A stretch of DNA of 64,000 nucleotides from a bacterium (GCA_963663405.2 CAXXSM010000110.1:32001-96000), one strand, 5' to 3'. Shown: positions 1 through 16,411, numbered from the stretch's first letter. The notes: a model not told the origin generated them from the letters alone. Made by a program: numbers and translations.

Positions 1-2
1 GG

Positions 3-1229
3 CATATGGGGAACGTGATGAATACCAGCGTTCAATCGAACGTTGGCGATCTATTGACCAGGAACGTAATCCTGGAATTGGATAGTCTGACGAACGCGGA
101 TAAAACATTCACGATCGAGTCGCTCTTGCTGTGGATTCATCATTACCGTTTGACACAGCCGGATCGAGAGACCTTCAAACACGCCATGATCATCGAGGAA
201 GCGCATCACATTTTACTGAAACGTTCCGGCGCCGGCAGCGGCGGGGAAGCGATCACGGACACCATTCTCCGTGAAATCCGGGAGTTGGGAGAAGGGATCG
301 TGTTGGTGGATCAGCATCCGAGTTTGATCTCGATTCCCGCCATGGGCAACACCTACGCCACGATCTGCATGAATCTGAAACACCGGTCCGATGTCAACGC
401 GGCGGGTGGGGCGATGCTGATTGACAATGAAGAGCGGGAATTATTGGGGCGGCTGCCAATTGGACGGGCGGTCGTCAAACTGCAGGGCCGCTGGCTGCAA
501 CCGTTTGAGATCTCGATTCCCCATCGAAAAATCCCTAAAGGATCTGTGAACGATACCGCTTTGGCGCAGCACATGGTAGAACGGAATATCCTCAATCCTT
601 ATGCGGAATATGATGAGGTCGTACATGGTACTGAGAACCCTATCACTATCCAATTGAATGAGAAAGAAAAAACCTTTTTGATCGATGTGTTTCAGAATCC
701 ACTGTTTGGCGCGGTGGAGCGGTACCGGCATCTTCATTTGAGCCGACGAAAAGGAAACGCGATTCGGGAATCGTGTATCGAAAAAGATTTGATCGAGCCG
801 GAAGAGATCCGGACACACAGCGGGAAAACAGTTCTGCTGGGATTAACGCCAAAGGGGAGAGCCTGTCTACGAAATATGAATTATGACGTTCCGAATAAAT
901 CTCGTTGGGGCAGTCTGGATCATGAATTTTGGAAAGAAAAAGCCGCGCAACAATTCGTTCTTTTGGGTTGGACTGTCAGGAAAGAAGAATCCGGTCATGG
1001 ATACACAGATCTTGTGGCGGAAAAGAACGGCCAAAAAATTGCGGTGGAGATTGAAACGGGAAAATCAAATTGGAGGGAAAATATCCGGAAGAATCTAGCG
1101 GGAGATTATCGAGGGATTTTCATCCTAACTACCAAACCAGAAACGCAGAATCAGATTCTAAAAGTGATCGATGAAATGGAAACCAAGATCCCCATCAAAG
1201 TGAAACAAGTCCAAGATTTCGTGAAATAA
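3..1229 (+). CDS. HerA/VirB4-like P-loop ATPase with C-terminal winged-helix and PD-(D/E)XK nuclease-like region (5' partial)
   Basis: Walker B MIIEEAHH and REIRELGEGIVLVDQHPS typical of HerA/FtsK; C-terminal E..YTDLVAE..AVEIETG. Frame is open to the window edge. Confidence 0.75.
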   Translation, partial: HMGNVMNTSVQSNVGDLLTRNVILELDSLTNADKTFTIESLLLWIHHYRLTQPDRETFKHAMIIEEAHHILLKRSGAGSGGEAITDTILREIRELGEGIVLVDQHPSLISIPAMGNTYATICMNLKHRSDVNAAGGAMLIDNEERELLGRLPIGRAVVKLQGRWLQPFEISIPHRKIPKGSVNDTALAQHMVERNILNPYAEYDEVVHGTENPITIQLNEKEKTFLIDVFQNPLFGAVERYRHLHLSRRKGNAIRESCIEKDLIEPEEIRTHSGKTVLLGLTPKGRACLRNMNYDVPNKSRWGSLDHEFWKEKAAQQFVLLGWTVRKEESGHGYTDLVAEKNGQKIAVEIETGKSNWRENIRKNLAGDYRGIFILTTKPETQNQILKVIDEMETKIPIKVKQVQDFVK

Positions 1230-1354
1230 GGAAAAATAAAATCTCTGGAGTGAAACACCGTGTCAAAGGAATCCGATTTCAGTGATTCCAGGAGTATTTA
1301 CCTTTCATATTTCAATTGACCCTCTATAGAGCCTATTTCATTCCAGGATAAATA

Positions 1355-1406
1355 GAATCTTGGAATATCTTCATTCGGAAGAATCCGTTGGATAATTCCA
1401 AGATTC
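1355..1406. terminator. Inverted repeat between convergent genes (possible bidirectional terminator)
   Basis: GAATCTTGGAATATC (1355-1369) / GATAATTCCAAGATTC (1391-1406), one bulge. Confidence 0.35.
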
Positions 1407-1437
1407 ATAATCATGCAATGCATGGGATAATTGATCT

Positions 1438-2322
1438 TCAATCAACAACCATGGGCTGTGATTTCTTCCCCTCTTTTGTGAGAGATTCAATCTGAGTAAT
1501 GATGGTGGATGCGCATCGGCGGATCTTCTCCAGACGATTGAGCAGTTTGTTTTTATCGCCTTCCCACAGGCGGATGTAATCGGACGACGCTTGGATAGCC
1601 TGTACGCTGAACCGCTCACAGACAACACAGGCGACAGCTTCGGCCTCCAATTCACGCAGCGAACGGGAATCGTTGGTTGTTTGTCTTTGATGGAGAATTT
1701 CATGGGCGAATTCATGCGCGAGCACAGCGAAGGTTTCCGCGGAATCCATTCCCTTTTTAATCGTTATGGATCCTTTTTTGGAATAGCCAAACGCCCGGCC
1801 TGTGTACCCATAATCGAGCTGGATTCCATTTTTACGAACAGCTTGCTCCAGCATGGAAAGATATTGTCTCGCTTCACCTTGTGCTCGAAACGGTTCGGGT
1901 AATTTTGAGCCGTGTGTCTGCGCTAGATCGAAAACACAGACCACGCGGAACGAATATATTGTGTCTTCTTCAAATGGCTCTTTCGAGTCTTCTTGCTTTG
2001 TTTCTTTTGACTGTATTGAAGCTGTTTTCTTTTTGTAGCAAACCGGAGCGAGGATGCGGATGGCTTTCTCGCCGCGTTTAATGGATCGATGGAGACGTTT
2101 CCAGGTTTGAAATCCGGCGACTTGCGTGGCTTCAGGGCGTTGGGCCAAAATGAGAAATTGATTGGAGGTGGAGTACGTATGGAAAAGCGACATGGTTTTC
2201 AGGTATCGAGTCATTTCTGCTGAGTATCCTTTTTCCAGCTGCTCCCCCAATTTGGTGATGGTCTCCTGGATGATTTTCCGGCTTTGTTGGATCCGATCTT
2301 TAGTATTTTGGTTTGGTTTCAT
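1438..2322 (-). CDS. ArdC-like ssDNA-binding protein with IrrE/ImmA-type HExxH metallopeptidase domain
   Basis: YSTSNQFLI, VAGFQTWKRL..IKRGEKAIRILAP, VFDLAQT, LAHEFAHE, ELEAEAVA; start reset to ATG 2322 after GGAGGA SD. Confidence 0.85.
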   Translation of the reverse strand: MKPNQNTKDRIQQSRKIIQETITKLGEQLEKGYSAEMTRYLKTMSLFHTYSTSNQFLILAQRPEATQVAGFQTWKRLHRSIKRGEKAIRILAPVCYKKKTASIQSKETKQEDSKEPFEEDTIYSFRVVCVFDLAQTHGSKLPEPFRAQGEARQYLSMLEQAVRKNGIQLDYGYTGRAFGYSKKGSITIKKGMDSAETFAVLAHEFAHEILHQRQTTNDSRSLRELEAEAVACVVCERFSVQAIQASSDYIRLWEGDKNKLLNRLEKIRRCASTIITQIESLTKEGKKSQPMVVD

Positions 2323-2326
2323 TTGT

Positions 2327-2371
2327 ATCCTCCGGCTAACTGGCCACCCTTGGACCAGTTGGCTGGAGGAT
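2327..2371. promoter_or_regulatory. 17-bp hairpin covering the ardC-like SD
   Basis: ATCCTCCGGCTAACTGG (2327-2343) / CCAGTTGGCTGGAGGAT (2355-2371), 15/17 Watson-Crick. Confidence 0.55.
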
Positions 2372-2461
2372 CTCATCGAAGTAAGTAAAAGCATGAAATA
2401 ATTCAGAGAATCCAGCTGGATTATGTCCACGAATAATTTTCTATATGAAAGATAATTCCTC

Positions 2462-2484
2462 AAAAAAAGGGGATTTCTCCCCTT
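2462..2484 (-). terminator. Rho-independent terminator
   Basis: Minus strand AAGGGGA-GAAA-TCCCC followed by T7. Confidence 0.65.
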
Positions 2485-2503
2485 CAATTCATCGCAATCA
2501 ATC

Positions 2504-2854
2504 CTACCGTAAGAATAGAAAATACCAGCGTCGTTTTGACTTCTGGTTTTCCGTTTCACGATGAATACGCTGACGTTCCAGTTCTGAAAGCTTATGACCG
2601 ATTTCTTCTGTGGTTTCTTCCTGAGCAACAGCGCGATAGGCGGTGACGCTTTTGAAGATGACCGGTTGATACTTGGCTTCGACGATATCGATCAGTTCGA
2701 GGATTGCTGCGCCGATTCGAGCAGCTTTGACATGCTCTTGGAGATCGTTGAAGTGACTATCGAAAATCGATTGTTCGGTCAGGATATCTCGCAGTCCTCG
2801 GCCTACATTTCGATTCGATTTTGCGTTAGCTGTTTTACTACCGTTATTATTCAT
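2504..2854 (-). CDS. Hypothetical protein
   Basis: ATG 2854 with AGAAAGGA SD; in operon. Confidence 0.6.
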   Translation of the reverse strand: MNNNGSKTANAKSNRNVGRGLRDILTEQSIFDSHFNDLQEHVKAARIGAAILELIDIVEAKYQPVIFKSVTAYRAVAQEETTEEIGHKLSELERQRIHRETENQKSKRRWYFLFLR

Positions 2855-2876: not shown

Positions 2877-3347
2877 TTAGATTTCTTGCCAGACCGATCC
2901 GGAATTGATGCCGGGGGCAATGGCGTGCGCGGCGGCTGTCAGCGTTCGATAGACTGTCCCATTGAACAGGATGGATCGACCATCGGAGCGTTTGTTGGAT
3001 GGATCGTCCACGATGACGGCTTCGTAGGTTTGGCCCCGATAGGTGGTTTGAATTGTTGAACCAACCGGTGGGATTTCCAATGGTTTGCGGGTGTGTTCGG
3101 GGATGTATTGCTCATCGCCGGTTTGGTTTGGAATCTTGGTTTGGATTTTCTCCTTTCTTTTTGGCTTTGAACTTTGATTCAGTGTTGGCGGTGATTTGAC
3201 ACTTGGTTGTGATTTGTTCGAATCACAATCGATGAGACGTCTTTCTTGTTCACGTATGCAATCGGTTTGGATGCCACAGCTCGCGCATTCCGGAGCGATG
3301 GGATCAAACAGGGCGAAACAGGATGGATTTTGGACACAGGTATCCAT
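2877..3347 (-). CDS. Cys-rich N-terminus plus RAMA/DUF2924-like C-terminal domain protein
   Basis: CVQNPSC..CASC..C; TYRGQTYEAVIV..ILFNGTVYRTLTAAAHAIAPGINSGSVW; GAAAGGAG SD. Confidence 0.6.
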   Translation of the reverse strand: MDTCVQNPSCFALFDPIAPECASCGIQTDCIREQERRLIDCDSNKSQPSVKSPPTLNQSSKPKRKEKIQTKIPNQTGDEQYIPEHTRKPLEIPPVGSTIQTTYRGQTYEAVIVDDPSNKRSDGRSILFNGTVYRTLTAAAHAIAPGINSGSVWQEI

Positions 3348-3389: not shown

Positions 3390-5270
3390 TTATTTGCGGT
3401 TTCTGCGGAGTAATTCAGAAAACTTCGTGTAGAACGCTTTAGGAAGTTCTGGCAGGTTTTGAACGACTACGTTCTCTTTGAAGAAATTCTTTACGTAATC
3501 CGCTTGGATGCCAACGGCCACACACTCGATTCCGGCCTTTTCACATTTACGCAGGTTCTCTTCGAGATGTTTAATGACAGCTATCTGCATCGTTGGATTC
3601 CCGCTGTATGGTTCTCCATCCGTGAGAACAAGGATGATCTTTCGGGTTTCCTTCCGGATGACGATACGTTTTGCAGTGAAAATAATGGCGTCATCGATGG
3701 GTGTGTATTCCAGGGCGTTCATAGCAGGAACGCGAGGCTTCAGCGCCCGGAATGGTTCGTCGAACGCCTTAAAGATGGAATAGACGCAGGGAAAGAAGCG
3801 GGTATAGAGTTTGGAGAGTTGCTGCAAATCCATCCCCGTTTCCCGTGTCAATCGGGCGAAGGCCCGTTTGGAAGGCTCAGTCGTGAAGCCGATTACCTCG
3901 GAGGGGATACGCAGCTGGTTGAGTGTTTCAGCGAATAGGATGGCGACTTGGCGAGCCAGGTAGATGCGTGGGCCATTCATCGAACCGGACAGATCAACAA
4001 GAAGCGACACCGCTACCGAATCGGATTCGCATTCTTGGATTTGCCGAAAGACTTTGTTCGAGCCCTGATTGAGCAGCGCATAAAGCTTTTTGCTGTTGAC
4101 CTGGCCTTCTTCCCGATCGTTGACCCAGAACCGGGTATCGCGCGAACGGAGAGTTCGAATCAACTGTTGCCGAAGAGCGCCGACATGAGGCCGAACAGCA
4201 TTGCTCAAGTTTTGATAAGTTTCACCGTTATCCAATGATAGAGGCGTAACAGCTTTATCCAGCGATGGATCGTATACCCGGTAGGCTTGGTTTGTTCCAT
4301 CACTGAATTCTTCTTGGACTTGCTCTCTGATAGTTCTCTGGAGCTCGAATGGATGGCCGGTGGATGAGTATTGTCCGGCTAAGGCCTGATCCATCGCGCC
4401 TTTATTTCCATTCTCAGAATCATCTGATGGACTACTTTTCGAGTTCGAGTGTTCATCCGAGTTCGAACCATCTTGTTGATCCATAGAATCATCCTTTTGT
4501 CCCTCGGAACCGTTTTGCCGATTGTCAGATTCTTCTTGACCACCAGAGGAAGAGGATTTTGTTGATCGCTGATCCTTGTCTATTGGTTCTTGCTTGGATT
4601 CACCAGATGAGGATTGTAACTGTGATTCTCGATTCTTTTCCGTACTATTTGGTTGTTTTGAATTTGAAGGTTGACTTTCTTGCTCAGCTTTATACTTGAG
4701 GCGTTCCAGGATACTTTCCGCCATTGCGCAGGCTTCGTCAGTGTTATGGAGGGATTTGAACCGCTCCGCTTCGTTCTTGAATTGTTCCACCATTCCGATC
4801 GCGTCTTCGCCATACTGGTCATAGGGCAGATCCATTCCAGTAAGGAACAGACCACACAAGAACCGGACTGGGAGAGGCATTTGATCGATGGGATGAGTGC
4901 GAGTGATCTCTGCGACGCTGTGCAGGATGTTGTGACGTGAGCCCGGATATTCCTTCTGCATGGCGTAATTGACGCGCACATCTTCGATGACATTAAGCGT
5001 ATCAAATCCGAAATCGCCCCATTTCTGTTTGAAATTCTTCATGCGGCCATCAAAGTCGCTGAAGAGGATATGGGCGGTCTCATGATCCAACTCACCACGG
5101 ACCAAACTCCATAACGACTCAGAGATCTCGTCTGGCAACGCCGGCAGCCAGATGGTCCGGCCGTCGGTCTTGCATTCGTTTCCTTTGCATTGGACTGAGA
5201 TGTTGTACTTACGGGACAAGATTCGTCCAACGCGTTCCAAGGTGGTTTCTAATCCGTATTGATTCTTCAT
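3390..5270 (-). CDS. CobT-like protein: N-terminal HExxH peptidase-like domain, S/D/Q-rich linker, VWA domain
   Basis: TDGRTIWLP, LDHETAH, NVIEDVRV; MIDAS DLSGSM; VLTDGEP. Confidence 0.85.
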   Translation of the reverse strand: MKNQYGLETTLERVGRILSRKYNISVQCKGNECKTDGRTIWLPALPDEISESLWSLVRGELDHETAHILFSDFDGRMKNFKQKWGDFGFDTLNVIEDVRVNYAMQKEYPGSRHNILHSVAEITRTHPIDQMPLPVRFLCGLFLTGMDLPYDQYGEDAIGMVEQFKNEAERFKSLHNTDEACAMAESILERLKYKAEQESQPSNSKQPNSTEKNRESQLQSSSGESKQEPIDKDQRSTKSSSSGGQEESDNRQNGSEGQKDDSMDQQDGSNSDEHSNSKSSPSDDSENGNKGAMDQALAGQYSSTGHPFELQRTIREQVQEEFSDGTNQAYRVYDPSLDKAVTPLSLDNGETYQNLSNAVRPHVGALRQQLIRTLRSRDTRFWVNDREEGQVNSKKLYALLNQGSNKVFRQIQECESDSVAVSLLVDLSGSMNGPRIYLARQVAILFAETLNQLRIPSEVIGFTTEPSKRAFARLTRETGMDLQQLSKLYTRFFPCVYSIFKAFDEPFRALKPRVPAMNALEYTPIDDAIIFTAKRIVIRKETRKIILVLTDGEPYSGNPTMQIAVIKHLEENLRKCEKAGIECVAVGIQADYVKNFFKENVVVQNLPELPKAFYTKFSELLRRNRK

Positions 5271-6361
5271 GATTCATTCGCTCCTTTCTGTGTAGGATTC
5301 ATGAGATCTCCCAGGCGCCGCTGCGCGATTTCTTCAACGACGCGCCGGTCATCTCGGGAGAGCTTGTTGAGAACGGTGAGTTCCAACGCTTTGGTCAGGT
5401 TACCGAGTTGATCGTATTTCCTGGCGAAAGCGAGCAAGCGACGGGTGGAAAAACTGCAATAACACTCTTCGCGTTCCGCCGCTTCGCGGACCTGGCGGGC
5501 GTATTTCACCAGACGTCTGATGTCGGTCTTTTTCAGGCTGGAGACTTTTTGAGAGAGGATTTCGGTCTCGGTTTTCTCATCTGGGTAGTCCAGATAGATG
5601 ACTGTGTCAAACCGGTCTTTGAAGGCTTCGTTCAAAATCTGCGTTCCAGCGTACAATCCAGACTCATCTCCATTACCGATCGTATTGGCGGTGGCGATGA
5701 TGCGAAAATCGGGATGGGGAGCGATTATCTCGCCGTCTTTTTCGAGAAGCGTGAGTTTGCCGCATTCTTCGAGCACGCTTTGGAGCACAAATAAAATATT
5801 TGGCAGAGCCGCGTCGATCTCATCGAGCAGCAGCCAATCACCGTTTTTCATGGCAGTGGGCAGGATGCCCTCGCTGTAAACCATTTCTTTGCCACGAACG
5901 GTCCAGCGGCCCAAGAAATCAGAGACCGTAGTCTCGCCATTCAGGTTGCAGCGCCGCAAAGGAGTATTGGTCTGGGCGGCGAGCTGCATGACCAGCGAAC
6001 TTTTTCCTGTGCCGGTCGGACCGACGATCATCACGTTTTCCTGGTGGTTAATGGAGTGGATCAGGTAAGCGGCCTCGGGCGGGAATTGGTAATGCGGATC
6101 AGAGTTAGGCACTATCGGATTTGCGCCATTTCTCTTTTTGAGCGCCGCGTCATGAATCCGGAACTCTGCTGTGGCTTGTATCGGTGTTCGTTTGACGGTT
6201 TTGCCGGATTGGATCTGATTGAGCAATGCCGGAGCCACCAGAGGCGCGCCAGGGTATTGCTTCAGGTACTCTTGCGCCGTTGTGCGGTGACATTCACCGA
6301 GGTGACCATACAAAGCGCCATGGATTGACTCTCCACAAAGTTGACAGGTGATAGTATTCAT
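5267..6361 (-). CDS. CobS/MoxR-like AAA+ ATPase with N-terminal Zn-finger-like motif
   Basis: GPTGTGKS, LLLDEID, HPDFRIIATANT, LNEAFKDRF, FSTRRL; CQLC..H...H; ATGA overlap with the VWA gene. Confidence 0.9.
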   Translation of the reverse strand: MNTITCQLCGESIHGALYGHLGECHRTTAQEYLKQYPGAPLVAPALLNQIQSGKTVKRTPIQATAEFRIHDAALKKRNGANPIVPNSDPHYQFPPEAAYLIHSINHQENVMIVGPTGTGKSSLVMQLAAQTNTPLRRCNLNGETTVSDFLGRWTVRGKEMVYSEGILPTAMKNGDWLLLDEIDAALPNILFVLQSVLEECGKLTLLEKDGEIIAPHPDFRIIATANTIGNGDESGLYAGTQILNEAFKDRFDTVIYLDYPDEKTETEILSQKVSSLKKTDIRRLVKYARQVREAAEREECYCSFSTRRLLAFARKYDQLGNLTKALELTVLNKLSRDDRRVVEEIAQRRLGDLMNPTQKGANES

Positions 6362-6904: not shown

Positions 6905-7342
6905 TTACTCACTTTCCCAGACGGAAACCATGCAGGGATCGCCTTCTTCGTCCATCTCCGTTTCCTCGCGTAGCTCTTGCTCGGTGAGATTGTCCACGTC
7001 GTAATCCTGGACACGGATTCTTACGCCAGCGGGGATGTTTTGGATATCCTGGATAACACCGCCGCGCACAAAGACGGTCACTTCATCCAATTCGATGACT
7101 GTAACATTCTTGATAGCCCGGCAACCTATCATCGCTATTCCTTCGTTGTGAAAGGCAGCCATGATTTCGCGTTCGTCCTCCGCATCATCCGCGTACATCG
7201 CAGCGAGTTCCTTGTAAGCTTGATCTTCTTTGTTTTCACCATCCGATTTTATGAAGATCGTCTCACAGTACTCGTGTTCTCCATCCACGATAGTGTAATG
7301 GACCTTCATCGTTCGATTTTCTTTTCTTGTGGTGTTTTTCAT
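6905..7342 (-). CDS. Acidic hypothetical protein
   Basis: AAGGAGG SD; VTVFVRGGVIQDI..VQDYD segment. Confidence 0.7.
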   Translation of the reverse strand: MKNTTRKENRTMKVHYTIVDGEHEYCETIFIKSDGENKEDQAYKELAAMYADDAEDEREIMAAFHNEGIAMIGCRAIKNVTVIELDEVTVFVRGGVIQDIQNIPAGVRIRVQDYDVDNLTEQELREETEMDEEGDPCMVSVWESE

Positions 7343-7375
7343 TGTTTTGATACCTCCTTCTTTTTTTTCATTGAA

Positions 7376-7639
7376 CTAGTAATCCTCTGGAAAAATCAAC
7401 GACACCAGATTTTGGCCATCGGTTCCGGCTCCTTCATCCAGGATGCCCCACAACCGGCGCCCGTTGATCTGGACGATCCACAGGTTGGGATTGGCTGGAT
7501 CGGGAACCTTCATCTTCTCAAAGAGAATCGTGAACGCGTGATGGATTTCTTCTGGTGTCAATGTTTCGTATACAGCTCGTGACACAACAGTTTGGGATTG
7601 GACTTCTACGGTACTGCTTGTTCGATTGGTTTCTTTCAT
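7376..7639 (-). CDS. Small hypothetical protein of plasmid/ICE type
   Basis: GGAGG SD; C-terminal SLIFPEDY resembles the T-I-L-x-P-E-(D/E)-Y end of small mobile-element proteins. Confidence 0.65.
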   Translation of the reverse strand: MKETNRTSSTVEVQSQTVVSRAVYETLTPEEIHHAFTILFEKMKVPDPANPNLWIVQINGRRLWGILDEGAGTDGQNLVSLIFPEDY

Positions 7640-7666
7640 TTTGGAACCTCCATTGTTATGGTTGAG

Positions 7667-7713
7667 GCAAAACGGCCTGGCAGGCCAGTATCTGCCCTGC
7701 CTGGTTGTTTTGC
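7667..7713. promoter_or_regulatory. Long imperfect hairpin upstream of the leftward operon
   Basis: GCAAAACGGCC-T-GGCAGG-C-CAG / CTG-C-CCTGCC-T-GGTTGTTTTGC. Confidence 0.5.
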
Positions 7714-8137: not shown

Positions 8138-8311
8138 ATGAAACGAATCACACCCCACACACCGGATGAAGAAATCGCCGATTGGATTGAAGAACAGCTC
8201 AAAGAAGTCAACCTAAAAGTCGAACACATTATTTACCGGCTGCGGTATGAAGATCCACGCATTTGGTTGGCTGAGAACGAGCGAAAAGATAAGAACCTAA
8301 AGAAATATTAA
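8138..8311 (+). CDS. 57-aa hypothetical protein (not in ORF track)
   Basis: MKRITPHTPDEEIADWIEEQLKEVNLKVEHIIYRLRYEDPRIWLAENERKDKNLKKY*; no SD. Confidence 0.55.
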   Translation: MKRITPHTPDEEIADWIEEQLKEVNLKVEHIIYRLRYEDPRIWLAENERKDKNLKKY

Positions 8312-8679: not shown

Positions 8680-9093
8680 TCAAAGGTAAAATATCAAATC
8701 CCGTTCTTTCTGTTCCTGGACGGAATCCTTCTTCTGTCGGAAATTCAGAACCAGATTGGCCACTTTCACTAACGCCCGGGGAAACTTGTTGGAAAACACC
8801 CAGCCTTCCCGATAGCCGTATGTCTTGTTAAACCGGGAGACGTGATCGATCAGCCCCATCCGCCGCATTTTGGCGCGAACCGTTTCCAAACTCCGGCGGC
8901 TCAATCCCAGTTGATCTACAATCGGATCCAGGACCGGTAAGAACTGATCCTTGGCCCATTTCAGTTCCACGAAGATCGAGAGAAAAATCTTTTGATGATT
9001 AGAGTTATCCGGAAAGAGAATTCTCGCCAACTCATCCGCGGATTCCAACCGGGATATCGTGTTATGGTTAGTCTCGATTTTTGTGGAAGCCAT
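8680..9093 (-). CDS. Winged-helix-like hypothetical protein
   Basis: IVDQLGLSRRSLETVRAKMRRMGLI pattern; abuts upstream gene. Confidence 0.65.
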   Translation of the reverse strand: MASTKIETNHNTISRLESADELARILFPDNSNHQKIFLSIFVELKWAKDQFLPVLDPIVDQLGLSRRSLETVRAKMRRMGLIDHVSRFNKTYGYREGWVFSNKFPRALVKVANLVLNFRQKKDSVQEQKERDLIFYL

Positions 9094-9094
9094 T

Positions 9095-9487
9095 TTATTT
9101 AGGGCGGTAGGATCGATTAGCTTGATTGACTCGTTTGCGTAATGTCACTCGTTCTTTCGCGATTTCAAGCGCCTGAGATCGTAGGTATGAGCCAAAATTG
9201 GATTCCAACCAATAGATCGTTGTATACGCGTTCACGTAAATATCGTTGAATAACCGTTGGAATCTCCAGCGGACTCCCTGGCGGGTCATGCCAAACACGC
9301 GCTCTATTTTCATCCCGTAATTCTTGTGCAATACCAATGTTTTTGGATCGGTCTTCTTCAGTTCAATGGATAGATCGTTCTCCTCAAACAGACCTTTCAA
9401 CCGTTGGATGAACTCCAAATCCTTTTGTGTCAGTTTCACTTTTCTTTTAAGGATTGATGTTCTATTTAAGGTTTTCGATCTCCTCAT
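9095..9487 (-). CDS. Hypothetical protein, possible HTH
   Basis: IERVFGMTRQGVRWRFQRL; start uncertain (9487 or 9550). Confidence 0.6.
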   Translation of the reverse strand: MRRSKTLNRTSILKRKVKLTQKDLEFIQRLKGLFEENDLSIELKKTDPKTLVLHKNYGMKIERVFGMTRQGVRWRFQRLFNDIYVNAYTTIYWLESNFGSYLRSQALEIAKERVTLRKRVNQANRSYRPK

Positions 9488-10235
9488 CGAAATCCCGTTT
9501 AAACACCCAGATATCGTTCCCCTCTTGCCGCAAATGGACTTGCCGGTCATGTTCCATGAATATCAGTGTAATAAACCGCCAGATTCGATCCTTCGGTGTG
9601 GAAGGATGCAACGCCGGTATCTGTGAAAAGAGCACACTGCGCTGGTTTACAAGAGCAGAGATGGCGCGCTGGTAATCGGTCATGCAGAACGTTTCCGAAC
9701 GGTCATATGCAAACTCATCATTCCCCGTTTCGGCGCCGATCAACCGATCCAAATCTTGTTCCAATCCTGGGATGGTGTCCAATTGGGGATAGTCCTCCAA
9801 TTCCAGTTCTTTCGAATGAGAATCCCTTAGCTGTTTTCTCATCCTGTCGCGGTACAGTTGTTTCCGTTCGCGTGATTCTTTCATTCGCTCTCTAAAATAA
9901 TCCGCGTCGAACAGCCGTTCATCAAAGAGAAATCTGGACGGAACGGTAGCGCCGCATTGCGTACAGGCGTAATGATACACTTTCTTCGTTAGCCTGGCTT
10001 TGCAGCAGGGGCTTGATTGAAATTCGATTGTCGGATCGAGTTGAACACCGCAGGAACATCGCCATGTCGTAGGAGAGAGAACCTTCATCTTTTGGCCGCA
10101 TTGGGGGCACCGGTAGCGCATCCGCAGCACCGCCACGTAAAAATCCCGCGCAATAGTCTGGATTGTTGTCACTCGATCGTGAACACGGTCGATCGCCGCA
10201 ATCAGAGGATTTGGATTCCTTCGTGGAATGAGCAT
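9462..10235 (-). CDS. Multi-Zn-ribbon protein with ScpA/kleisin-like C-terminal winged helix
   Basis: CPQC..CSC, CC..CTQC; RIWRFITLIFMEHDRQVHLRQEGNDIWV resembles the ScpA C-terminus. Confidence 0.65.
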   Translation of the reverse strand: MLIPRRNPNPLIAAIDRVHDRVTTIQTIARDFYVAVLRMRYRCPQCGQKMKVLSPTTWRCSCGVQLDPTIEFQSSPCCKARLTKKVYHYACTQCGATVPSRFLFDERLFDADYFRERMKESRERKQLYRDRMRKQLRDSHSKELELEDYPQLDTIPGLEQDLDRLIGAETGNDEFAYDRSETFCMTDYQRAISALVNQRSVLFSQIPALHPSTPKDRIWRFITLIFMEHDRQVHLRQEGNDIWVFKRDFDEEIENLK

Positions 10236-10332: not shown

Positions 10333-10491
10333 ATGGAAGAACTATTTGAATGTCCTTATTGTACATCGTCTAACACAATTTGGCGGGGTTATCGTAAATT
10401 GAAAGAAGGGCGAGTCAGAATTCGCCAATGCAAATCCTGTAAGCGGCGATTCACTCCCAGAAAACAACCGGAATATGGTGATGAACCATGA
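10333..10491 (+). CDS. 52-aa Zn-ribbon protein (not in ORF track)
   Basis: MEELFECPYCTSSNTIWRGYRKLKEGRVRIRQCKSCKRRFTPRKQPEYGDEP*; AGGTGA SD; ATGA overlap with 10488. Confidence 0.75.
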   Translation: MEELFECPYCTSSNTIWRGYRKLKEGRVRIRQCKSCKRRFTPRKQPEYGDEP

Positions 10492-10796
10492 ATGGAATAG
10501 CCGCTAAACCGGAGATGGAATTCAAAGCCGGCGCGGTTCGCGCCGCTATCTGGATGAATCCACATCAATCCGCCGATGGGAAATTGTTTACCAGCGCGAA
10601 AGTCGTGGTGGAACGGATCTACAAGGATGAGAGCGGCCATTTTAAAAGCACACACCGTCTCGATACCAATGATATCCCCAAGGCGATCCTGGTTCTCAAA
10701 AAGGCGTTCGAAGTGCTTACGCTCAAAAAACCGGAGCCAGGATATCAGCCGACACAGTCTTCTCTCCATCCATCGATCCCTAACCGTCTACCATGA
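10488..10796 (+). CDS. Putative PC4-like nucleic-acid-binding protein
   Basis: FKAGAVRAAIWMN..VERIYKDESGHFKST..NDIPKAILVLKKAFE; GGTGA SD. Confidence 0.65.
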   Translation: MNGIAAKPEMEFKAGAVRAAIWMNPHQSADGKLFTSAKVVVERIYKDESGHFKSTHRLDTNDIPKAILVLKKAFEVLTLKKPEPGYQPTQSSLHPSIPNRLP

Positions 10797-11032
10797 ATCC
10801 CCGCTTTGAAGATCGGACTTTCTTGGCGAGTGAACCACTGGATTGGATTATGATTCAAAGAATCAGAGATCTGCGAAATCTTGCTGATGCGAGCCATGAT
10901 CGATTGAGAGAATTACGACGGGAGCCCCAAAAGAATTCTTTGGAGATCCGGTTTGAAGAAACTGTTCTTCATTCGACCTTACGAACGATTGAGAAAATGG
11001 AACATTCATTGTTTCTGGAAAGGAATGACTAA
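10793..11032 (+). CDS. Hypothetical protein
   Basis: ATGA overlap with the preceding gene. Confidence 0.55.
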   Translation: MNPRFEDRTFLASEPLDWIMIQRIRDLRNLADASHDRLRELRREPQKNSLEIRFEETVLHSTLRTIEKMEHSLFLERND

Positions 11033-12301
11033 AGATTTTGCCCGCAGGTCTTGAAGACCTTTTGGACGACTTTTTCTGGAAGAGAGGAAGACAGTTCCCG
11101 GGTTTTTTCCGTACCGCCCCTTTGAGATTACCCTGGCGTTGATTAAACCGTAGATGTCCAAAAAACTGACGATATCAGAGAATCGCCGCTGTGTGAGTGT
11201 CCGCACATTCCGCTGGTCACAGATGGATCGATAAATATCATAAGCGGGCCCGGTCCAGAGTTTTTCTCGTGAGTTATGCAAGCCAGTATAGCAAGCCAAG
11301 AGAGCGCATTTCTGTTGAGGCGCGAGAGCTTGGATTAACTGCTCGGTCTTGTCGATCTCCAACAAGGAATCCGCCTCATCCACTTCACGCACACCCAGAT
11401 AACCGGTCGAATCTTCGGCGATTTTGACTCCTTTGACTAACAACTCGATGGCTTTGCGCGCGTCTCCATTCTCCCGTGACGCGTATGCGGCGATTTTGCG
11501 GATCGACGCGGGATCGACTTTCCGGATGTCGAGGGCTTTCTCCACCCGGAGATTTAAGATTTCAATCAGATCCATGGCGTCGTAGGGCTCAAAAATAATA
11601 TCCGTCTTTTTGAGCACGGAGAGAATTCGAGGATCCAAGGTTTTGTCCCATTCGATTCGATTGGTCAGCAAGAGATAAAATAAGCGGACGGGAACCCGTT
11701 TGGGCAATGTTTTGGCTAAAAACGTGTAAAAGAGATCGCTGTTGGAGGTGACATTGTCGACCTCGTCCATCACAATGCAGACCAAGTTATGGCGGGCCGT
11801 CAGCGCCCGGATGACGGTCTCTTGCATCTGGTCTAACGCGATGCCTTTGCGGTACCGTTTGGTTGTCCCATCCAAGGATAAGGCCAGCTCGTTCAACGCG
11901 CCAAAACAGGTTTTCGGAGTGGTGAGATCGACGTAATAATACTGAAACTGAATCTGTTTGGCGCCGCACATGGAAGCCAGAGCGTTGAGGAAATGTAAGC
12001 AGGTGACCGATTTGCCCGCGCCGGAAGGGCCGTAGATCAGGAGATTGGCCGGCGAATCACCGGCCAGAACGGGTGATAAGTATTTGGCTAATCGATGCAG
12101 TTGTTGTTGGCGAATGTTGCGTTGAAAGATCTCTTTTAGAACCGTTACCCGTTCGGATTCCGTCAGTTTTTCATCATCGAGATAGGAAGGATTCAGCGTG
12201 ATTTTCTTGTCTTCGATATGAAGAAACGCTTCTTGAATCAGGGATTCTGTGCTCGTTGTCGAGGTGGATGGTTCGGTTCCATAGGAAATCTTCTGACTCA
12301 T
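11006..12301 (-). CDS. cdc6: Orc1/Cdc6-family replication initiator (AAA+ plus winged helix); probable +1 frameshift near the C-terminus
   Basis: NLLIYGPSGAGKS, IVMDEVD, LDPRILS, FEPYDAMDLIEILNLRV, GDARKAIELL, LTQRRFSDIVSFLDIYGLI..KGRYGK. Confidence 0.9.
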   Translation of the reverse strand: MSQKISYGTEPSTSTTSTESLIQEAFLHIEDKKITLNPSYLDDEKLTESERVTVLKEIFQRNIRQQQLHRLAKYLSPVLAGDSPANLLIYGPSGAGKSVTCLHFLNALASMCGAKQIQFQYYYVDLTTPKTCFGALNELALSLDGTTKRYRKGIALDQMQETVIRALTARHNLVCIVMDEVDNVTSNSDLFYTFLAKTLPKRVPVRLFYLLLTNRIEWDKTLDPRILSVLKKTDIIFEPYDAMDLIEILNLRVEKALDIRKVDPASIRKIAAYASRENGDARKAIELLVKGVKIAEDSTGYLGVREVDEADSLLEIDKTEQLIQALAPQQKCALLACYTGLHNSREKLWTGPAYDIYRSICDQRNVRTLTQRRFSDIVSFLDIYGLINARVISKGRYGKNPGTVFLSSRKSRPKGLQDLRAKSLVIPFQKQ

Positions 12302-12325
12302 GCCGTATAGGAAGGCCTCTTTCAA

Positions 12326-12340
12326 TATTTAAATTTTTTC
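12326..12340 (-). promoter_or_regulatory. Archaeal-type BRE-TATA upstream of cdc6
   Basis: GAAAAAA-TTTAAATA ending 24 nt before ATG 12301; no SD. Confidence 0.55.
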
Positions 12341-12468
12341 TTGTCCTGAAGGAGTGATAACAGAGAACTGGGAGGGAAGATTTCCTGTGGAACGCAATTA
12401 TAAAATAAGGTTCATCCGGAAATTGGGCACATCGATTGAATTTTTAATAAAAAGTGTAATCGAAAGCC

Positions 12469-12559
12469 CTATGGATCGTGACGTGTCTGTGGACAAATCT
12501 ATCGATATTGCCCACAGCCACTTGGATAACGATAAAGCCGTTATCCACACGCTCCACAG
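12469..12559. repeat. Cloverleaf of hairpins containing DnaA-box sequences
   Basis: Stems 12469-80/12548-59, 12487-96/12508-17, 12524-31/12539-46; TTATCCACA at 12541; TGTGGACAA at 12488. Confidence 0.7.
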
Positions 12560-13065
12560 TTATACGGATAATACCAATTCTATTTTTTTCTTTGTTAATA
12601 ACTGATTGAATATTCTATACTTAAGAATCTTGAAAAACTTGCTAAGATTTAAAGAAATCCTTGTATTGATCATTTTAAAAAACAGATTGCAAAACACCCA
12701 ATAATCAATATTCCGATAGTCTATTCAAAGATTAGATAATCATAGAATAAGATACACAAATATTTGACAGATTACTTTTGACATTTAACAGATCACGGAG
12801 TATCGATGCTTTTTTCCTAGGAAATTTGAGGTATCACAATGATAAAACTTACAAAAAATGGTGAAATTTCCTAAGAAAAAACGCAATGCGCCCAATTTCC
12901 GGATGAGCCTAAAATAAGTTGTTTATTACTTCTTTTATTACATACTATATAGAAAACAAAAACAAACATTCAAATTCAAAAATTTTCATACATATCACAA
13001 TTGAAAATGAGTTTCCACAGGAAATCTCCTCTCATGGTTCGACCAATTTCCAATGAATTTCCAAT

Positions 13066-13080
13066 CGTAACATTTATATT
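13066..13080 (+). promoter_or_regulatory. Archaeal-type BRE-TATA motif
   Basis: CGTAACA-TTTATATT ending 23 nt before in-frame ATG 13104. Confidence 0.5.
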
Positions 13081-13103
13081 TGAGTAGGAACAAATATGAA
13101 TCC

Positions 13104-14327
13104 ATGATTGGAAATCGAATGGCAAATGGGATAGATCATCACGCGTGGACATTCACAAGATCGTCAGTTCCCAATGGATTCTCTGCTTTGACTCAGTGGG
13201 ATACTATCCTCGATCCAACCCATGTTTATCTTCGTCATTCTAACATCATCGATTTTTTCATTTTTGCTCTTATTTTCATCGGAATCGCTCATTTCAGTCT
13301 CCGAAAGAGATTTCCTGGTAGAGCAGGAAGAGCGGTCAGTTTGGGGATTGGATTGGTTCTGGCCTTTTCTATGATTTCTGCGGAAAAGAGATATCAATTT
13401 ACTCTCACTTCATTTGGTACGGTGGCAATTGTCATTTTAACTCTTCTGTTTGGGATTATGGTCTACCAGATTTTTTCGTATTTAAAAATAAGTTCGATTC
13501 TATCTTTTCTTTTAACCTTGGTTGTGATGATGTTGGTAGTTACAACCATCGATCCTTATTTGAATGATCTGGCAAGCGCTATCATTCCTTTTTTGTATCC
13601 ATTGCTCGTAATCGCATTTCTTGTCTCTTTGGTGAAAGCGCTTGCAAAGATTAGTGCCAGGAGTCCGAGTGAAGCTCTGAAAGTCAAATTACATAAACTC
13701 TCCTACAACGATCCCGATCGAATCACCAACAAGAAATTATCCGATGAAGCGAATTCTTTGAAGAAAGTCGGTATTCCTGGAATCAAAAAAATGCAGTCTA
13801 GCATGAAACAGATGAAGACATCGTTTGATGAACTGGATTCTTCCATTCAACATTACGGAGGGAATCCTCGGGCCCGATCCTTGCTCGCTCAGAAAATACA
13901 AATGACGTTTCAATCGAACCGTTATTTGAAAAAATCACTGGATTCTCTTAAAACACTCAATGAACGTCTCCTGGCTCTGGATTCCAGTCTGTTTTCTGCA
14001 AAACAGCGCCAACTGATGGACAAAATGAGTCTAAAAGAACGGAGGAAATTGAAGAAAGAGATACTGGATGAACAGCAAAAGGTTGGATTGGAATCGGAGA
14101 TCGAGGAGTTAGAAACGAGGATTGAGAATCGGGAAATCGCGATTAATCAATCGTTGCGTGATTCCATGAGAAATCTACTGGCTGGAAGAATAGAGGAAGC
14201 GCTCAAGAAGATTCGAATAGCGAGAGTCTGGAAGAAAGAAGGCTATTTGATCGCCCAGCGGATTCAGGATTTGGAAAAGAAAATTTTGAGGATAAGCCTT
14301 TTGGATATCGATCGAACGAAAATTTAA
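13104..14327 (+). CDS. Membrane protein (about 5 TM segments) with long C-terminal coiled coil
   Basis: Hydrophobic segments from IIDFFIFALIFIGIA to LLVIAFLVSLV, then K/E/L-rich heptads. Confidence 0.75.
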   Translation: MIGNRMANGIDHHAWTFTRSSVPNGFSALTQWDTILDPTHVYLRHSNIIDFFIFALIFIGIAHFSLRKRFPGRAGRAVSLGIGLVLAFSMISAEKRYQFTLTSFGTVAIVILTLLFGIMVYQIFSYLKISSILSFLLTLVVMMLVVTTIDPYLNDLASAIIPFLYPLLVIAFLVSLVKALAKISARSPSEALKVKLHKLSYNDPDRITNKKLSDEANSLKKVGIPGIKKMQSSMKQMKTSFDELDSSIQHYGGNPRARSLLAQKIQMTFQSNRYLKKSLDSLKTLNERLLALDSSLFSAKQRQLMDKMSLKERRKLKKEILDEQQKVGLESEIEELETRIENREIAINQSLRDSMRNLLAGRIEEALKKIRIARVWKKEGYLIAQRIQDLEKKILRISLLDIDRTKI

Positions 14328-14339: not shown

Positions 14340-14819
14340 TCAGCGGTTTTGCACGGTCAAAATCGCATTCATGATCTCACGCATGCGTTCAATTGTATCG
14401 ACCTGATGAGAATCCCTGTGATGATACATCACATCAATCCCAGCAAAGAGATTCCGATGAAGACTTTCCACTTGATACAGATTCTGCTTATCCGCTTCCA
14501 GAACTAGGACAAAACGATATTCATTCTCCCAACCTTGTATCTTCATATGTGGCCGGGCGCGGAGGAAATACTCCTCCGCCCGGTGAACTTGCCGGATGGC
14601 TTCCCCAATATCGTAGAGTCGAGGTTTCATTTCACAGATCAACCATGTCGATCTTTTCTGATCCGCAGAATCTTTCCGAAGCACAACATCAATCACGCCC
14701 CGATCCCCATAATGGTTGTACATGATCTCACAGCCAACCAGGGAGTAATGTTTTAACTTCATCGCCTCAATGAAATTCTGTGTAAATGCGGCGTGTTGAT
14801 GGTCTTTTGTGGAAGGCAT
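14340..14819 (-). CDS. PD-(D/E)XK restriction-endonuclease-like protein
   Basis: CEIMY..GVIDVV..LICEMK..GEAIRQV; start uncertain (14819 or 14990). Confidence 0.6.
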   Translation of the reverse strand: MPSTKDHQHAAFTQNFIEAMKLKHYSLVGCEIMYNHYGDRGVIDVVLRKDSADQKRSTWLICEMKPRLYDIGEAIRQVHRAEEYFLRARPHMKIQGWENEYRFVLVLEADKQNLYQVESLHRNLFAGIDVMYHHRDSHQVDTIERMREIMNAILTVQNR

Positions 14820-14850
14820 TTTCTCATGAGACCAAAGTAAGAATGTATGA

Positions 14851-14864
14851 TTTATAAAACTTTG
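14851..14864 (-). promoter_or_regulatory. Archaeal-type BRE-TATA-like motif
   Basis: CAAAGT-TTTATAAA ending 23 nt before ATG 14827 (out of frame) and 31 nt before in-frame ATG 14819. Confidence 0.35.
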
Positions 14865-15304
14865 GATTTTACAAGGTGTGTATTCATAACTCGATTGATT
14901 GAGTAATCGATGCCGGTCAGGATGGTAAACAGGATTGTGTCTATTCGGTGGAATTCGTGGTATGATGATTTTCTCAAGTCTTGCATTCATTGACCTTTTT
15001 AGTTTGAATGACTGATTATTTTCAATAAATCGTCATAAACCTTTGTTTTTGAGTGATTTGAGCGTTCATTTCTTTGAAATATAAGGTACACGGATGCAAA
15101 ATCGGCATACATATATAGATATTATATGAGATCAAATTTAATAATTAATGAGTTAAACTTTTTATAATAGGGTATATATAATACTAAATTATTCAAAAAA
15201 TACTCTAACCTTGTGTATTCTCAATTCAAGCAATTTTCCCCTTAAATCAAAAATTTGTTGTGATATCTTATACGTATATTTCGGAGTGATTTTGGAGGAA
15301 AATC

Positions 15305-16411
15305 ATGGCTGATCAAACCCGAAAAAAGAAGATTAAGAGAGTCTATGGAACCGGTTGTCTTTATCAGAGGAATGGGTTTTGGTATGTCAGTTTTCGTCAT
15401 GAAGGTAAACAGTTGGTTCGCGCGGTTGTAGAGCCGAGTACGAAACGGCGGGCGGTGAATAAAATACAAGCCGAAAAATGGGCTCAGGAAATGATGTATC
15501 GAATTTCCCATGGCGAAAAAGGCGCATTGGAAGATCGGATTAAGAAAAAGAATTTGATTTTACTCCAAGAACTTGATGAAGCTTATTGTCAGGCGTTTGA
15601 AGAACAATGGGATGAAAAACGAAGAGTCCATCACCGGAATGTCATAGGGCGGTTTACGAAACGCTTTACTCATATTCGTGATATTACACATGAATCGCTT
15701 GGTCAATACGTGGAAGAACGCAAAAGTCCATCATCCCGTGGTACGATTCGTTCAAACGCAACAATCAACAGAGAACTATCAGAATTACGAAGGATTCTTA
15801 ATTGGGCTTTGCAAGTTGACCTCATTGAGAGAAATCCATTTCTTGGATTTAAACTACTCAAAGAAGAAAACCACCGGGAGAGAATTTTAACGGATGAAGA
15901 ATTACAACGCTTACTTGCGACTCTCAAGAAGAAAGAATTCTCGGATTTTCGTCCAATTGTGTTGATTGCGTTGTATATGGGGATGCGGCGGGGCGAGATC
16001 ATTAATTTGAAATGGTCGGATGTTGATGAAACGAAACAAGAATTCGATCTACTCAAAACCAAAAATGGAAAACGCCGGAGGCTTCCAATCCCCGATATCG
16101 TATGGAAGGAATTGAGAAAGATCAAAAGGAATTCTGAATACATCTTTGCGTCACCAAGGAATCCAGAGCAACCACGAAAAAAGATATGGAATCGTTGGAC
16201 AGCGCTATTGAAAGCTAGTAAGATAGACAACTTTCGCTTCCATGATGCTCGCCACTGGTGTGCATCAAATTTGTTACGAAATGGCGCCGATCTCGCAGTC
16301 GTGAAGGAGATTCTTGGGCATACGACTATCGTGACGACCAGCCGATATTTGAATGTTCTTCAAAAGGAGAAGAAGACTGCGTTGGATGACTTAGAAAGAA
16401 AATTCACTTGA
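15305..16411 (+). CDS. Tyrosine recombinase/integrase
   Basis: GMRRGEI (R), TKNG (K), FHDARH (HxxR), ILGH, TTSRY (Y); arm-binding-like N-terminus; GGAGG SD. Confidence 0.95.
   Translation: MADQTRKKKIKRVYGTGCLYQRNGFWYVSFRHEGKQLVRAVVEPSTKRRAVNKIQAEKWAQEMMYRISHGEKGALEDRIKKKNLILLQELDEAYCQAFEEQWDEKRRVHHRNVIGRFTKRFTHIRDITHESLGQYVEERKSPSSRGTIRSNATINRELSELRRILNWALQVDLIERNPFLGFKLLKEENHRERILTDEELQRLLATLKKKEFSDFRPIVLIALYMGMRRGEIINLKWSDVDETKQEFDLLKTKNGKRRRLPIPDIVWKELRKIKRNSEYIFASPRNPEQPRKKIWNRWTALLKASKIDNFRFHDARHWCASNLLRNGADLAVVKEILGHTTIVTTSRYLNVLQKEKKTALDDLERKFT

Follow-up and report, generated by a model that had tools for sequence, protein, structure and literature searches.

The 64-kb window analyzed here (G000:C110:32001-96000, part of a 189-kb contig) belongs to a bacterial metagenome-assembled genome (MAG), and its left 16.4 kb covers the right portion of an integrated mobile element of about 38 kb, which carries a gene (cdc6) for an Orc1/Cdc6 protein. 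At and upstream of the start of this gene lie three copies of a short box resembling the origin recognition box (ORB) of archaea, two of them inverted around an AT-rich spacer. As described in a first-pass annotation made from the sequence alone, cdc6 is situated between a tyrosine integrase gene and genes for ArdC- and HerA-like proteins, and bacterial host genes, including a LysR regulator beside KatG and hybrid histidine kinases, follow to the right; the coordinates of the features are collected in Table 1. The host assembly amounts to 8.44 Mb in 170 contigs (46.9% GC; 82% complete, 2.4% contamination) and possesses a bacterial 16S sequence (1545 bits), DnaA (226.8 bits), and three DnaB-family helicases, the best of which (334 bits) is found on contig C105. 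Genes for sigma-54, an extracytoplasmic function (ECF) sigma factor, and LysR are located on the same 189-kb contig as cdc6.

The Cdc6 protein matches TIGR02928 with 239.4 bits (5.1e-71), above the curated NCBIfam cut-off of 181.3; against the narrower equivalog NF001625 it scores 225 bits, below the cut-off of 501. Pfam recognizes Cdc6_C, the C-terminal winged helix (7.4e-18), and Cdc6_lid (1.4e-10). The closest solved structures are Orc1-1 of S. solfataricus (2qby_A; 7.9e-43) and ORC1 of A. pernix (2v1u_A; 2.8e-42), with alignments spanning residues 72-409, and more distant matches are to Orc1-3 (5.3e-24) and Pyrobaculum Cdc6 (1.1e-8). Its AAA+ motifs align with those of Orc1-1 and ORC1; across 18 relatives there is no variation in GPSGAGKS (99-106), D187/E188, T221/N222, R233, and GDAR (287-290), which from the alignment we read as Walker A, Walker B, sensor 1, arginine finger, and sensor 2. 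The first-pass description of a protein with all AAA+ and winged-helix motifs is upheld by these data, and the family score together with the Orc1-1 and ORC1 matches excludes the non-initiator AAA+ family which had been put forward as the alternative. Judged by its sequence, the protein is a true initiator-type Orc1/Cdc6.

Counting along the structure-match alignment places Cdc6 residues G161/I162, R380, and R404 opposite Orc1-1 G120/L121 in the initiator-specific motif (ISM), R341 in the helix-turn-helix (HTH), and R365 in the wing. Table 1 of PMC3089459 lists mutants at these Orc1-1 positions as lowered in binding to, or specificity for, the mini origin recognition box (mORB). The corresponding DNA-contact residues are invariant in the 18 relatives, I162 nearly so. 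The N-terminal ~70 residues are conserved in the bacterial clade and show no alignment to the solved archaeal proteins. From these features we infer that Cdc6 would bind the boxes, melt the origin, and support replication.

Repeat finding revealed the boxes as three 18-nt copies of the sequence GTTCCAYMGGAAAT, for which a variant ending in ...AAAC exists in some relatives. Exact matches to TTCCAYAGGAAAT number three in the 64-kb window, all at 12277-13025, and the 14-nt pattern, which has 11 exact matches in the genome, adjoins the four copies of cdc6 in eight cases. The euryarchaeal ORB consensus, as it is quoted in PMC1868953, is GTTCCAGTGGAAAC-AAA----GGGGG. The box core agrees with it at 11-12 of the first 14 positions; the box tail is C-rich (CTTCCC or TTACCC) where the consensus has a G-string. 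Allowing at most one mismatch and taking -500 to +150 of the cdc6 start as the zone near the gene, 15 boxes were counted in 6,118 bp around the start at 10 genome loci versus one in 135,899 bp elsewhere, with boxes at nine of the 10. At 19 independent metagenome loci, a set which leaves out L052 with its missing cdc6 5′-end, the numbers were 25 in 11,725 bp versus one in 143,106 bp (boxes at 14 of the 19). Pooled, this makes 40 boxes in 17.8 kb beside cdc6 versus two in 279 kb elsewhere.

The same arrangement of boxes is found in Hydrogenedentota, Desulfobacterota, and the metagenome relatives. The equivalent of box A lies at -188 to -291 on the strand opposite cdc6; that of box B, in most relatives, at -74 to -130 on the cdc6 strand; and that of box C, often present on the opposite strand, at +2 to +24 in L007, L041, L042, and L044 and at -32 in L009 and L010. 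In 12 of the 14 loci having an A/B pair, the pair is inverted, with a spacer of 92-269 bp. The GC content of these 12 spacers (0.17-0.47) is always under that of the locus (0.38-0.58), and the lowest 40-nt window within them falls to 2.5-12.5% GC in 10 loci and to 22.5% and 32.5% in the other two; for the C141 copy the values are 0.17 for the spacer and 0.445 for the locus. In archaeal origins, according to PMC4010727 and PMC1868953, inverted initiator boxes flank an AT-rich stretch beside the initiator gene. At the sequence level, cdc6 likewise adjoins ORB-type inverted repeats around an AT-rich element, and the DNA upstream of it looks like an archaeal origin. Such boxes, inverted around an AT-rich spacer upstream of a bacterial cdc6, are new here. 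Boxes B and C also bracket the cdc6 promoter and start codon; a scan of 10900-13200 for sigma-70-like promoters was uninformative, with five sites versus 4.3 expected.

In the copy within the window this layout is interrupted by a miniature inverted-repeat transposable element (MITE) with imperfect terminal inverted repeats of ~44 nt and a target duplication of 8-9 bp. Eight other full-length copies of it (98.7-100% identity) are found on other contigs. The C4, C86, and C141 copies of the element are without it, position 12409 joining 12910 with 8-9 shared bases, and the MITE-free form, with 12400 next to 12910, also appears in contigs of runs X2 and X3. The insert therefore accounts for most of the window's long AT-rich intergenic region, the native spacer being ~110 bp, and by separating box B from the spacer the MITE may have disabled the origin of this copy. 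A DnaA-box cloverleaf at 12469-12559 was rejected as a part of the module, since it lies wholly inside the MITE, which the other three copies do not have.

A search of 5.8 billion proteins resulted in 455 matches to Cdc6 at E<=1e-5 among 8000 scored candidates. Among the 120 matches listed, identity to Cdc6 is 55-95%, and the few that bear an organism name derive from Hydrogenedentes MAGs, Thermodesulfobacteriota, and the delta proteobacterium NaphS2. Scanning one genome per species gave 12 confirmed loci, two of them archaeal (25-26% identity) and 10 bacterial (54-65%), the latter from Hydrogenedentota, Desulfatiglandales, NaphS2, Desulfopila, Desulfosarcina variabilis str. Montpellier, Desulfarculaceae, and Thermodesulfobacteriota. 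Four of the 10 bacterial loci sit in sequence records of 2.0-9.6 Mb, and homologues of 54-65% identity are present in complete bacterial chromosomes of 6.5-9.6 Mb, including that of a cultured Desulfosarcina. Within the host phylum a match at E<=1e-20 exists in eight of 35 species genomes (above cut-off in five), and within the host family in three of 19 other genomes. This patchy presence is the pattern of a mobile gene.

For phylogenetic analysis, 113 of 149 representatives (P0122-P0270) with lengths of 370-520 aa were used, fragments and fusions having been dropped, in quick maximum-likelihood searches with support given by the Shimodaira-Hasegawa-like approximate likelihood ratio test (SH-aLRT) only. 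The 10 bacterial sequences form one group (SH-aLRT 98) and, together with seven unlabelled metagenome relatives, a 17-row clade which a branch with a support of 97 splits from 14 named archaeal sequences (DPANN, Halosimplex, and Micrarchaeota) and the remaining representatives. The nearest named matches of one deep unlabelled relative, P0139, are DPANN Orc1 proteins (36-41% identity); despite this similarity, 11 named DPANN sequences fall across that branch from the bacterial clade. The phylogeny proposed at first pass has separated the bacterial proteins from the archaeal ones, with no donor lineage singled out. Together, the searches and the trees indicate that the bacterial Cdc6, which recurs in many anaerobes, is a widespread bacterial clade and not a stray single gene.

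The element was initially delimited as 1-16411, which is correct as regards its right end (~16418-16449) and not its left, where the unit continues for at least 21 kb beyond the window, homology with the C141 copy reaching C110:10830 and that with C64 ~8704. Its core, from a 198-aa protein and the HerA/TraG-like ATPase through the 216-aa protein, is present in the genome in four copies (C110, C4, C86, and C141) of 87-98% aa identity, in addition to partial ones. The synonymous divergence (dS) between the four copies is 0.27-0.41, cdc6 is intact in all of them, and the ratio of nonsynonymous to synonymous divergence (dN/dS) is 0.04-0.06 for cdc6, 0.03-0.04 for the 137-aa winged-HTH-like protein, 0.07-0.10 for the ATPase, 0.12-0.25 for the Zn-ribbon protein, and 0.09-0.23 for the HTH-like protein. 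The core is under strong purifying selection. A recombinase at one end, multiple copies, and a patchy distribution mark the unit as a mobile element. At the right junction, position 16384 is the last with homology to another integrase copy. Contigs of the probable source runs, X1 and X2, terminate within 16418-16449; the junction is crossed by a 242-nt contig (16289-16530, no mismatch) of run X3, which belongs to another study. A second integrase copy, at C1:26185-31479 (91% nucleotide identity), is interrupted by ~3.9 kb, and its parts on either side of the interruption match window positions 15034-16148 and 16141-16384.

The neighbors of cdc6 were surveyed at 30 bacterial-clade loci (L004-L013 and L035-L054), many of them on short contigs. 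The most conserved partner is the 137-aa protein, which shows 55-63% aa identity in L004-L007, L010, L035, L036, L038, L041, and L042; it has no Pfam match, its Atlas clusters are bacterial only, and HTH_36 and RepL are leads (score 0.91). The HTH-like small protein is 56-61% identical over 102-113 aa in relatives, and the Zn-ribbon protein 40-45% identical in eight relatives with invariant Cys residues. All three occur together in eight of the 30 loci. Other companions are p102 (50-64% identical in L035, L037, and L045), p52 (49-58% in L006, L007, L037, L041, and L050), and the divergent membrane protein, while ArdC is found at five loci, Replic_Relax at three, and the HerA/TraG-like ATPase at two. 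An AlphaFold2 model of the Zn-ribbon protein, with a predicted local distance difference test score (pLDDT) of 70.7, has as its nearest folds the C-termini of kleisins, namely the ScpA winged-helix domain 5h66_C (E 0.012; template modeling score 0.77 by target) and Scc1-C. That of p102 (pLDDT 79.7) consists of four strands followed by a helix, with Borrelia Pur-alpha as its top fold (E 0.029, not significant). Neither model matched a PDB fold at E<=0.001, so the likeness to Pur-alpha and ScpA-C is no more than a lead. A 126-aa ORF on the minus strand at 10389-10769 was rejected as a gene: its dN/dS is 0.69, it has a stop in C4, and it is a shadow of p52, p102, and p79.

Regarding the remaining genes of the element, the full-length HerA/TraG-like ATPase matches DUF87 (2.5e-11) and P-loop_TraG (4e-05), with weak CedD and HerA matches in its C-terminal part; its four copies are 94-95% identical in aa sequence, and homologues exist in L010 and L042. 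A DNA translocase or coupling protein is its candidate role. The ArdC-like protein is identified by ArdcN (8.8e-11), Peptidase_M78 (1.8e-4), and the anti-restriction family phrog_7245 (1.7e-16), and has the motif HEFAHE. The CobT-like protein was rejected as a true cobaltochelatase subunit (TIGR01651, 94 bits versus a cut-off of 759), and its CobS-like partner is far under the corresponding cut-off (TIGR01650, 166 bits versus 558). The 415-aa protein combines hydrophobic segments with a helical tail that is long and charged, and has homologues of 23-28% identity in L006, L035, and L042. The integrase gives XerD-, XerC-, and XerA-like matches, all under the equivalog cut-offs.

To the left of the window, where the first-pass annotation had suggested looking for MCM, primase, or a relaxase, a Replic_Relax protein is encoded at C110:29501-30607 (L002:17501-18607; 9.1e-20), and neither MCM nor primase was found. 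This gene is full length only in C110, the C4 and C86 copies being without 519 bp (C110:29635-30152). A 5.6-kb cassette at C110:23984-29634 (L002:11984-17634) encodes an ECF sigma-70 factor, FecR, an N-methyl prepilin-type protein, and two FG-GAP proteins. It represents a variable slot, which is present in C110, C4, and C86, absent from C55, and occupied by other DNA in C141. Further left, a GC-rich (54-57%) module at C110:10594-21111 (L003:10594-11661 and L002:237-9111), common to the C141 copy, encodes Prok-JAB, ThiF/E1-like, 994-aa DUF87/HerA-like ATPase, WD40, and Ser/Thr kinase proteins, the last split over two ORFs (L002:7649-8167 and 8164-9111); it looks like ubiquitin-like conjugation or defense cargo. 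At C110:5278-8559 (L003:5278-8559) lies a 1093-aa surface-protein-like ORF with a Peptidase_S74 chaperone domain and a UspA1 repeat, containing an internal tandem duplication of ~690 nt (C110:6566-7248 and 7256-7938; 83% identical). On the host side, a repeat of ~117 nt at 18819-18935 directly follows the GHL6 gene and has copies of 75-80% identity on C103 (twice), C129, C164, and C4 and at three further sites on C110. Insertion sequences abound on the contig; transposases in the host flank are of the IS66 family (35547-36872) and DDE_Tnp_1 (48709-50517).

Table 1. Features of the element and of its right host flank in window coordinates (aa, amino acids; ORF, open reading frame; DUE, DNA unwinding element; VWA, von Willebrand factor type A)
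Feature	Position	Strand	Remarks
HerA/FtsK/TraG-like P-loop ATPase	1-1229	+	660 aa; gene start at C110:31247, 753 bp before the window; last 408 residues in the window
ArdC-like anti-restriction protein	1438-2628	-	ArdC N-terminal single-stranded DNA-binding domain and zincin HExxH peptidase
156-aa protein	2877-3347	-	No family match; six genome copies, 72-99% aa identity
CobT-like VWA protein	3390-5270	-	CobT_C 2e-23, VWA 1.4e-6, phrog_1576 8.7e-72
CobS-like MoxR-type AAA+ ATPase	5267-6361	-	AAA_5 4.3e-24, CbbQ_C 5.3e-6, phrog_249 1.2e-73; VWA partner
137-aa protein	8680-9093	-	Probably winged HTH; most conserved cdc6 partner
HTH-like small protein	9095-9550	-	Conserved over ~110 aa; true start probably downstream of 9550
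257-aa Zn-ribbon protein	9462-10235	-	Two CxxC zinc ribbons and C-terminal winged-helix domain
p52 Zn-ribbon / p102 / p79	10333-10491 / 10488-10796 / 10793-11032	+	Three overlapping genes convergent on cdc6
Orc1/Cdc6, Orc1-1 type (cdc6)	11006-12301	-	431 aa from likely ATG at 12301; ORF extends to 12325 (upstream TTG)
ORB-like box C	12276-12293	+	Overlaps cdc6 codons 3-8; exact match to box pattern
ORB-like box B	12376-12393	-	~90 bp upstream of cdc6 ATG; exact match
MITE	12409-12909	.	501 bp; between box B and AT-rich spacer; not native to the module
AT-rich spacer, candidate DUE	12910-13012	.	~110 bp between boxes A and B in MITE-free copies
ORB-like box A	13013-13030	+	Inverted relative to box B
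415-aa membrane and coiled-coil protein	13080-14327	+	Divergent from cdc6; no family match
216-aa protein	14340-14990	-	No family match; five genome copies
Tyrosine integrase	15305-16411	+	Phage_integrase 5.3e-32; right end of element
Right element-host junction	16412-16449	.	Just past integrase
LysR regulator	36996-37949		Host flank; beside KatG
KatG	38255-40480		Host flank
Hybrid histidine kinases	55149-56411 and 61426-63936		Host flank

On balance we favor, with moderate confidence, the reading that cdc6 and its boxes form the element's own replication module, which would be used after excision, and that Cdc6 would also regulate itself. The reading draws upon the Orc1-1-type protein, its conserved DNA-binding residues, the co-occurring boxes and their origin-like layout, the selection, and the mobile context. 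In this scheme the tyrosine integrase would excise the element as a circle, and ATP-bound Cdc6 would bind the boxes through its winged helix and the ISM. The bound protein would then bend and underwind the DNA, open the AT-rich spacer, and start theta-type replication of the circle, while through boxes B and C Cdc6 would repress its own gene. In a genome without MCM the helicase would have to be a host enzyme of the DnaB type. Its recruitment might, as pure speculation, proceed through the N-terminal 70 residues of Cdc6, specific to the bacterial clade, or through small partners, candidates for which are the Zn-ribbon/winged-helix protein, the two HTH proteins, p52, and p102. The HerA/TraG-like ATPase, Replic_Relax, and ArdC may help the element to move into new cells and become established there. 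What we infer here is binding, melting, and autonomous replication and, most of all, reliance on a bacterial helicase. Tentatively, one may go further and regard the module as an archaeal Orc1-1/ORB replicator transplanted into bacteria, in which initiation would be hybrid, the origin being handed over to a DnaB-type helicase and replisome through the N-terminal module or the partners, among them the Zn-ribbon protein with its kleisin-like winged helix, p102 with its Pur/PC4-like topology, and the small HTH proteins; this possibility is, in our estimation, somewhat doubtful.

Several observations weigh against a replicon. The candidate origin of this copy is split by the MITE, and since the four copies come from a MAG some may belong to co-binned strains. 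Family scans of its ORFs found no helicase, primase, or polymerase on the element; nor was a helicase or primase found in 10 large ORFs near related cdc6 loci, which encode NrdD, a Y-family polymerase, kinases, HEAT repeats, and another DUF87/FtsK/TrwB-like ATPase. MCM was found neither on the element or its relatives nor in the 8.44-Mb assembly at its 82% completeness, where the best PF00493 match has 30.5 bits in a search in which all 14 control genomes, bacteria included, exceed the Pfam cut-off too. We know of no mechanism by which Orc1 loads a DnaB-type helicase. Prediction of a complex between Cdc6 and the host DnaB gave scores of 0.00 and 0.00 versus a mark of 0.32, which speaks neither for nor against binding. 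The two extra DnaB-family genes of the host assembly (C15:4689-6029 and C47:15823-17148) are 44% identical to the chromosomal DnaB on C105 and have, less than ~6 kb away, an integrase which is 44-50% identical to that of the element; a second family of mobile elements, one bringing its own helicase, may be their source.

Also on the negative side, no circular form was found, a terminal overlap of at least 15 bp occurring in none of 16 whole metagenome contigs. In PLSDB, 425 records match Cdc6, all with less than 60% identity; the 40 listed are all archaeal (24.7-32% identity), and no bacterial plasmid is among them. Phage records and IMG/VR yielded no Cdc6 match. A comparison of exact shared words between C110:1-32000 and the right junction revealed no att direct repeat longer than 12 bp, and no empty site was readable in G018, G022, and G004, in which only the GHL6 gene of the right flank is conserved. 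The element ORFs scanned included no type IV secretion genes. The word depth of X1 contigs identical to this copy is 2.1-3.1 and that of a host-flank contig 2.6, contig depth not being equal to copy number. Of the cross-domain replicon proposed at first pass, the true initiator, the multi-copy integrated element, and, in addition, the ORB-like boxes have substance; the helicase or primase, the extrachromosomal form, and the att sites were not found.

Some of this would suit a different role, in which Cdc6 is a sequence-specific regulator, either an autorepressor or a master switch, acting at the divergent promoter region between cdc6 and the gene at 13080, and the element is copied only passively with the chromosome, or by a different route when it is transferred. 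The cdc6 promoter has boxes B and C on its two sides, C lying within the first codons of the gene, and box A precedes the divergent gene; plain autoregulation would also account for the positions of B and C, and neither a helicase, primase, or MCM nor a plasmid or circular form was found. A precedent exists in Sulfolobus, where the Orc1 paralogue Orc1-2 acts as a transcription regulator in response to DNA damage. Against such a role, the nearest relatives of Cdc6 are the initiator paralogues Orc1-1 and ORC1 (E ~1e-42), with Orc1-3 and Pyrobaculum Cdc6 much more distant, its full set of ATPase motifs is invariant, and a very AT-rich spacer within inverted boxes (12 of 14 loci) exceeds the needs of an operator and equals the archaeal origin layout. 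Archaeal initiators, moreover, bind beside their own genes too, so autoregulation is compatible with initiation. We regard a purely regulatory function as unlikely, though, as the main alternative, deserving of serious consideration.

Still less probable, to the point of being implausible, is that the Cdc6-like ATPase constitutes defense or conflict cargo, as a DNA-sensing AAA+ switch like the signal transduction ATPases with numerous domains (STAND), unrelated to the maintenance of the element. The defense-like cargo at the left of the repeated unit (JAB, ThiF/E1, the 994-aa DUF87 ATPase, WD40, and the Ser/Thr kinase) would be in keeping with it. PADLOC, however, gave for Cdc6 only a marginal match to mad8 (2.9e-4; 18 bits), no effector domain is fused to Cdc6 or conserved beside it, its conserved neighbors are small DNA-binding proteins, and the cognate boxes are situated on the element and not on an invader. 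Finally, archaeal DNA on a bacterial contig through misassembly or misbinning, or a decaying relic, might be suspected in a MAG of 170 contigs in which the end of the element coincides with breaks in the contigs from the probable source runs. This is refuted: cdc6 lies inside a 189-kb contig with bacterial sigma factor and LysR genes, the X3 contig bridges the junction, homologues reside in complete bacterial chromosomes, and the four copies are intact with low dN/dS. The chimeric assembly which the first-pass annotation had considered is excluded on the same grounds.

By comparison with known systems, the replicon that we favor is of a known kind, an archaeal replicator-initiator pair, located here on a bacterial mobile element without MCM. 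With the oriC1-type pairs of Sulfolobus, Aeropyrum, Pyrococcus, and Haloferax it shares the protein family, the domain order, the ISM, HTH, and wing contact residues, and an orc1 gene beside inverted repeats which flank an AT-rich DUE. It differs from them in its bacterial host, which has DnaA and DnaB and in which no MCM was found, and in the C-rich box tail, the ~70-residue N-terminal extension, and a clade of its own (SH-aLRT 97). Archaeal plasmids and integrated elements, such as those of haloarchaea and Methanosarcina, likewise carry orc1/cdc6 on a mobile element and depend on a helicase supplied by the host, and orc1/cdc6 is annotated on hundreds of archaeal plasmids in PLSDB. Their hosts, in contrast, supply MCM, and the 40 listed matches, none bacterial, are only 25-32% identical to the window protein.

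The actinomycete integrative and conjugative elements (AICEs) of Actinomycetota, such as pSAM2 and SLP1, use initiators of the RepSA, RepAM, or prim-pol types. They may serve as a working analogy, having a tyrosine integrase, their own initiator, and a single FtsK/HerA-type translocase instead of full type IV secretion; unlike the present element they have no Orc1/Cdc6 initiator and their hosts are Actinomycetota, and the analogy does not imply family membership. A Bacillus cereus prophage reportedly carries an MCM-like helicase, and to our knowledge no cognate origin DNA has moved with it. This too is an archaeal/eukaryotic-type replication protein on a bacterial mobile element, differing in that it is a helicase rather than an initiator and is narrowly distributed. 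The accessible wording of PMC3056875 speaks of a prophage element of narrow distribution which brought novel DNA-handling machinery into a bacterium, and does not there name MCM. We found no description of a bacterial Orc1/Cdc6-ORB element in the full-text literature, a body which leaves most subscription journals and supplements outside its coverage, so that an earlier mention is possible. The present case adds a measurement of selection across four copies, an origin disrupted by a MITE, and the extent of the element as a whole.

One practical consequence concerns metagenomics, as bacterial elements with Cdc6 would mislead archaeal screens which are based on TIGR02928. At least one metagenome workflow, described in a preprint, relies on this family to mark archaeal chromosomes (10.64898/2026.05.20.726742). 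In the element, strong selection acts on a complete archaeal-type unit of initiator and origin in bacteria without MCM, distributed over at least two phyla and including a cultured Desulfosarcina. Initiation by DnaA and DnaB and initiation by Orc, Cdc6, and MCM are the textbook example of non-homologous solutions kept apart by domain; hybrid initiation, if true, would be the first natural bridge between these two cellular replication machineries. Should the module replicate, it would reveal an Orc1-type initiator coupled to a bacterial replisome and provide a small system in which to study the minimal role of an initiator. Should it not, an initiator and its DNA sites would have been reused as the regulatory switch of a mobile element.

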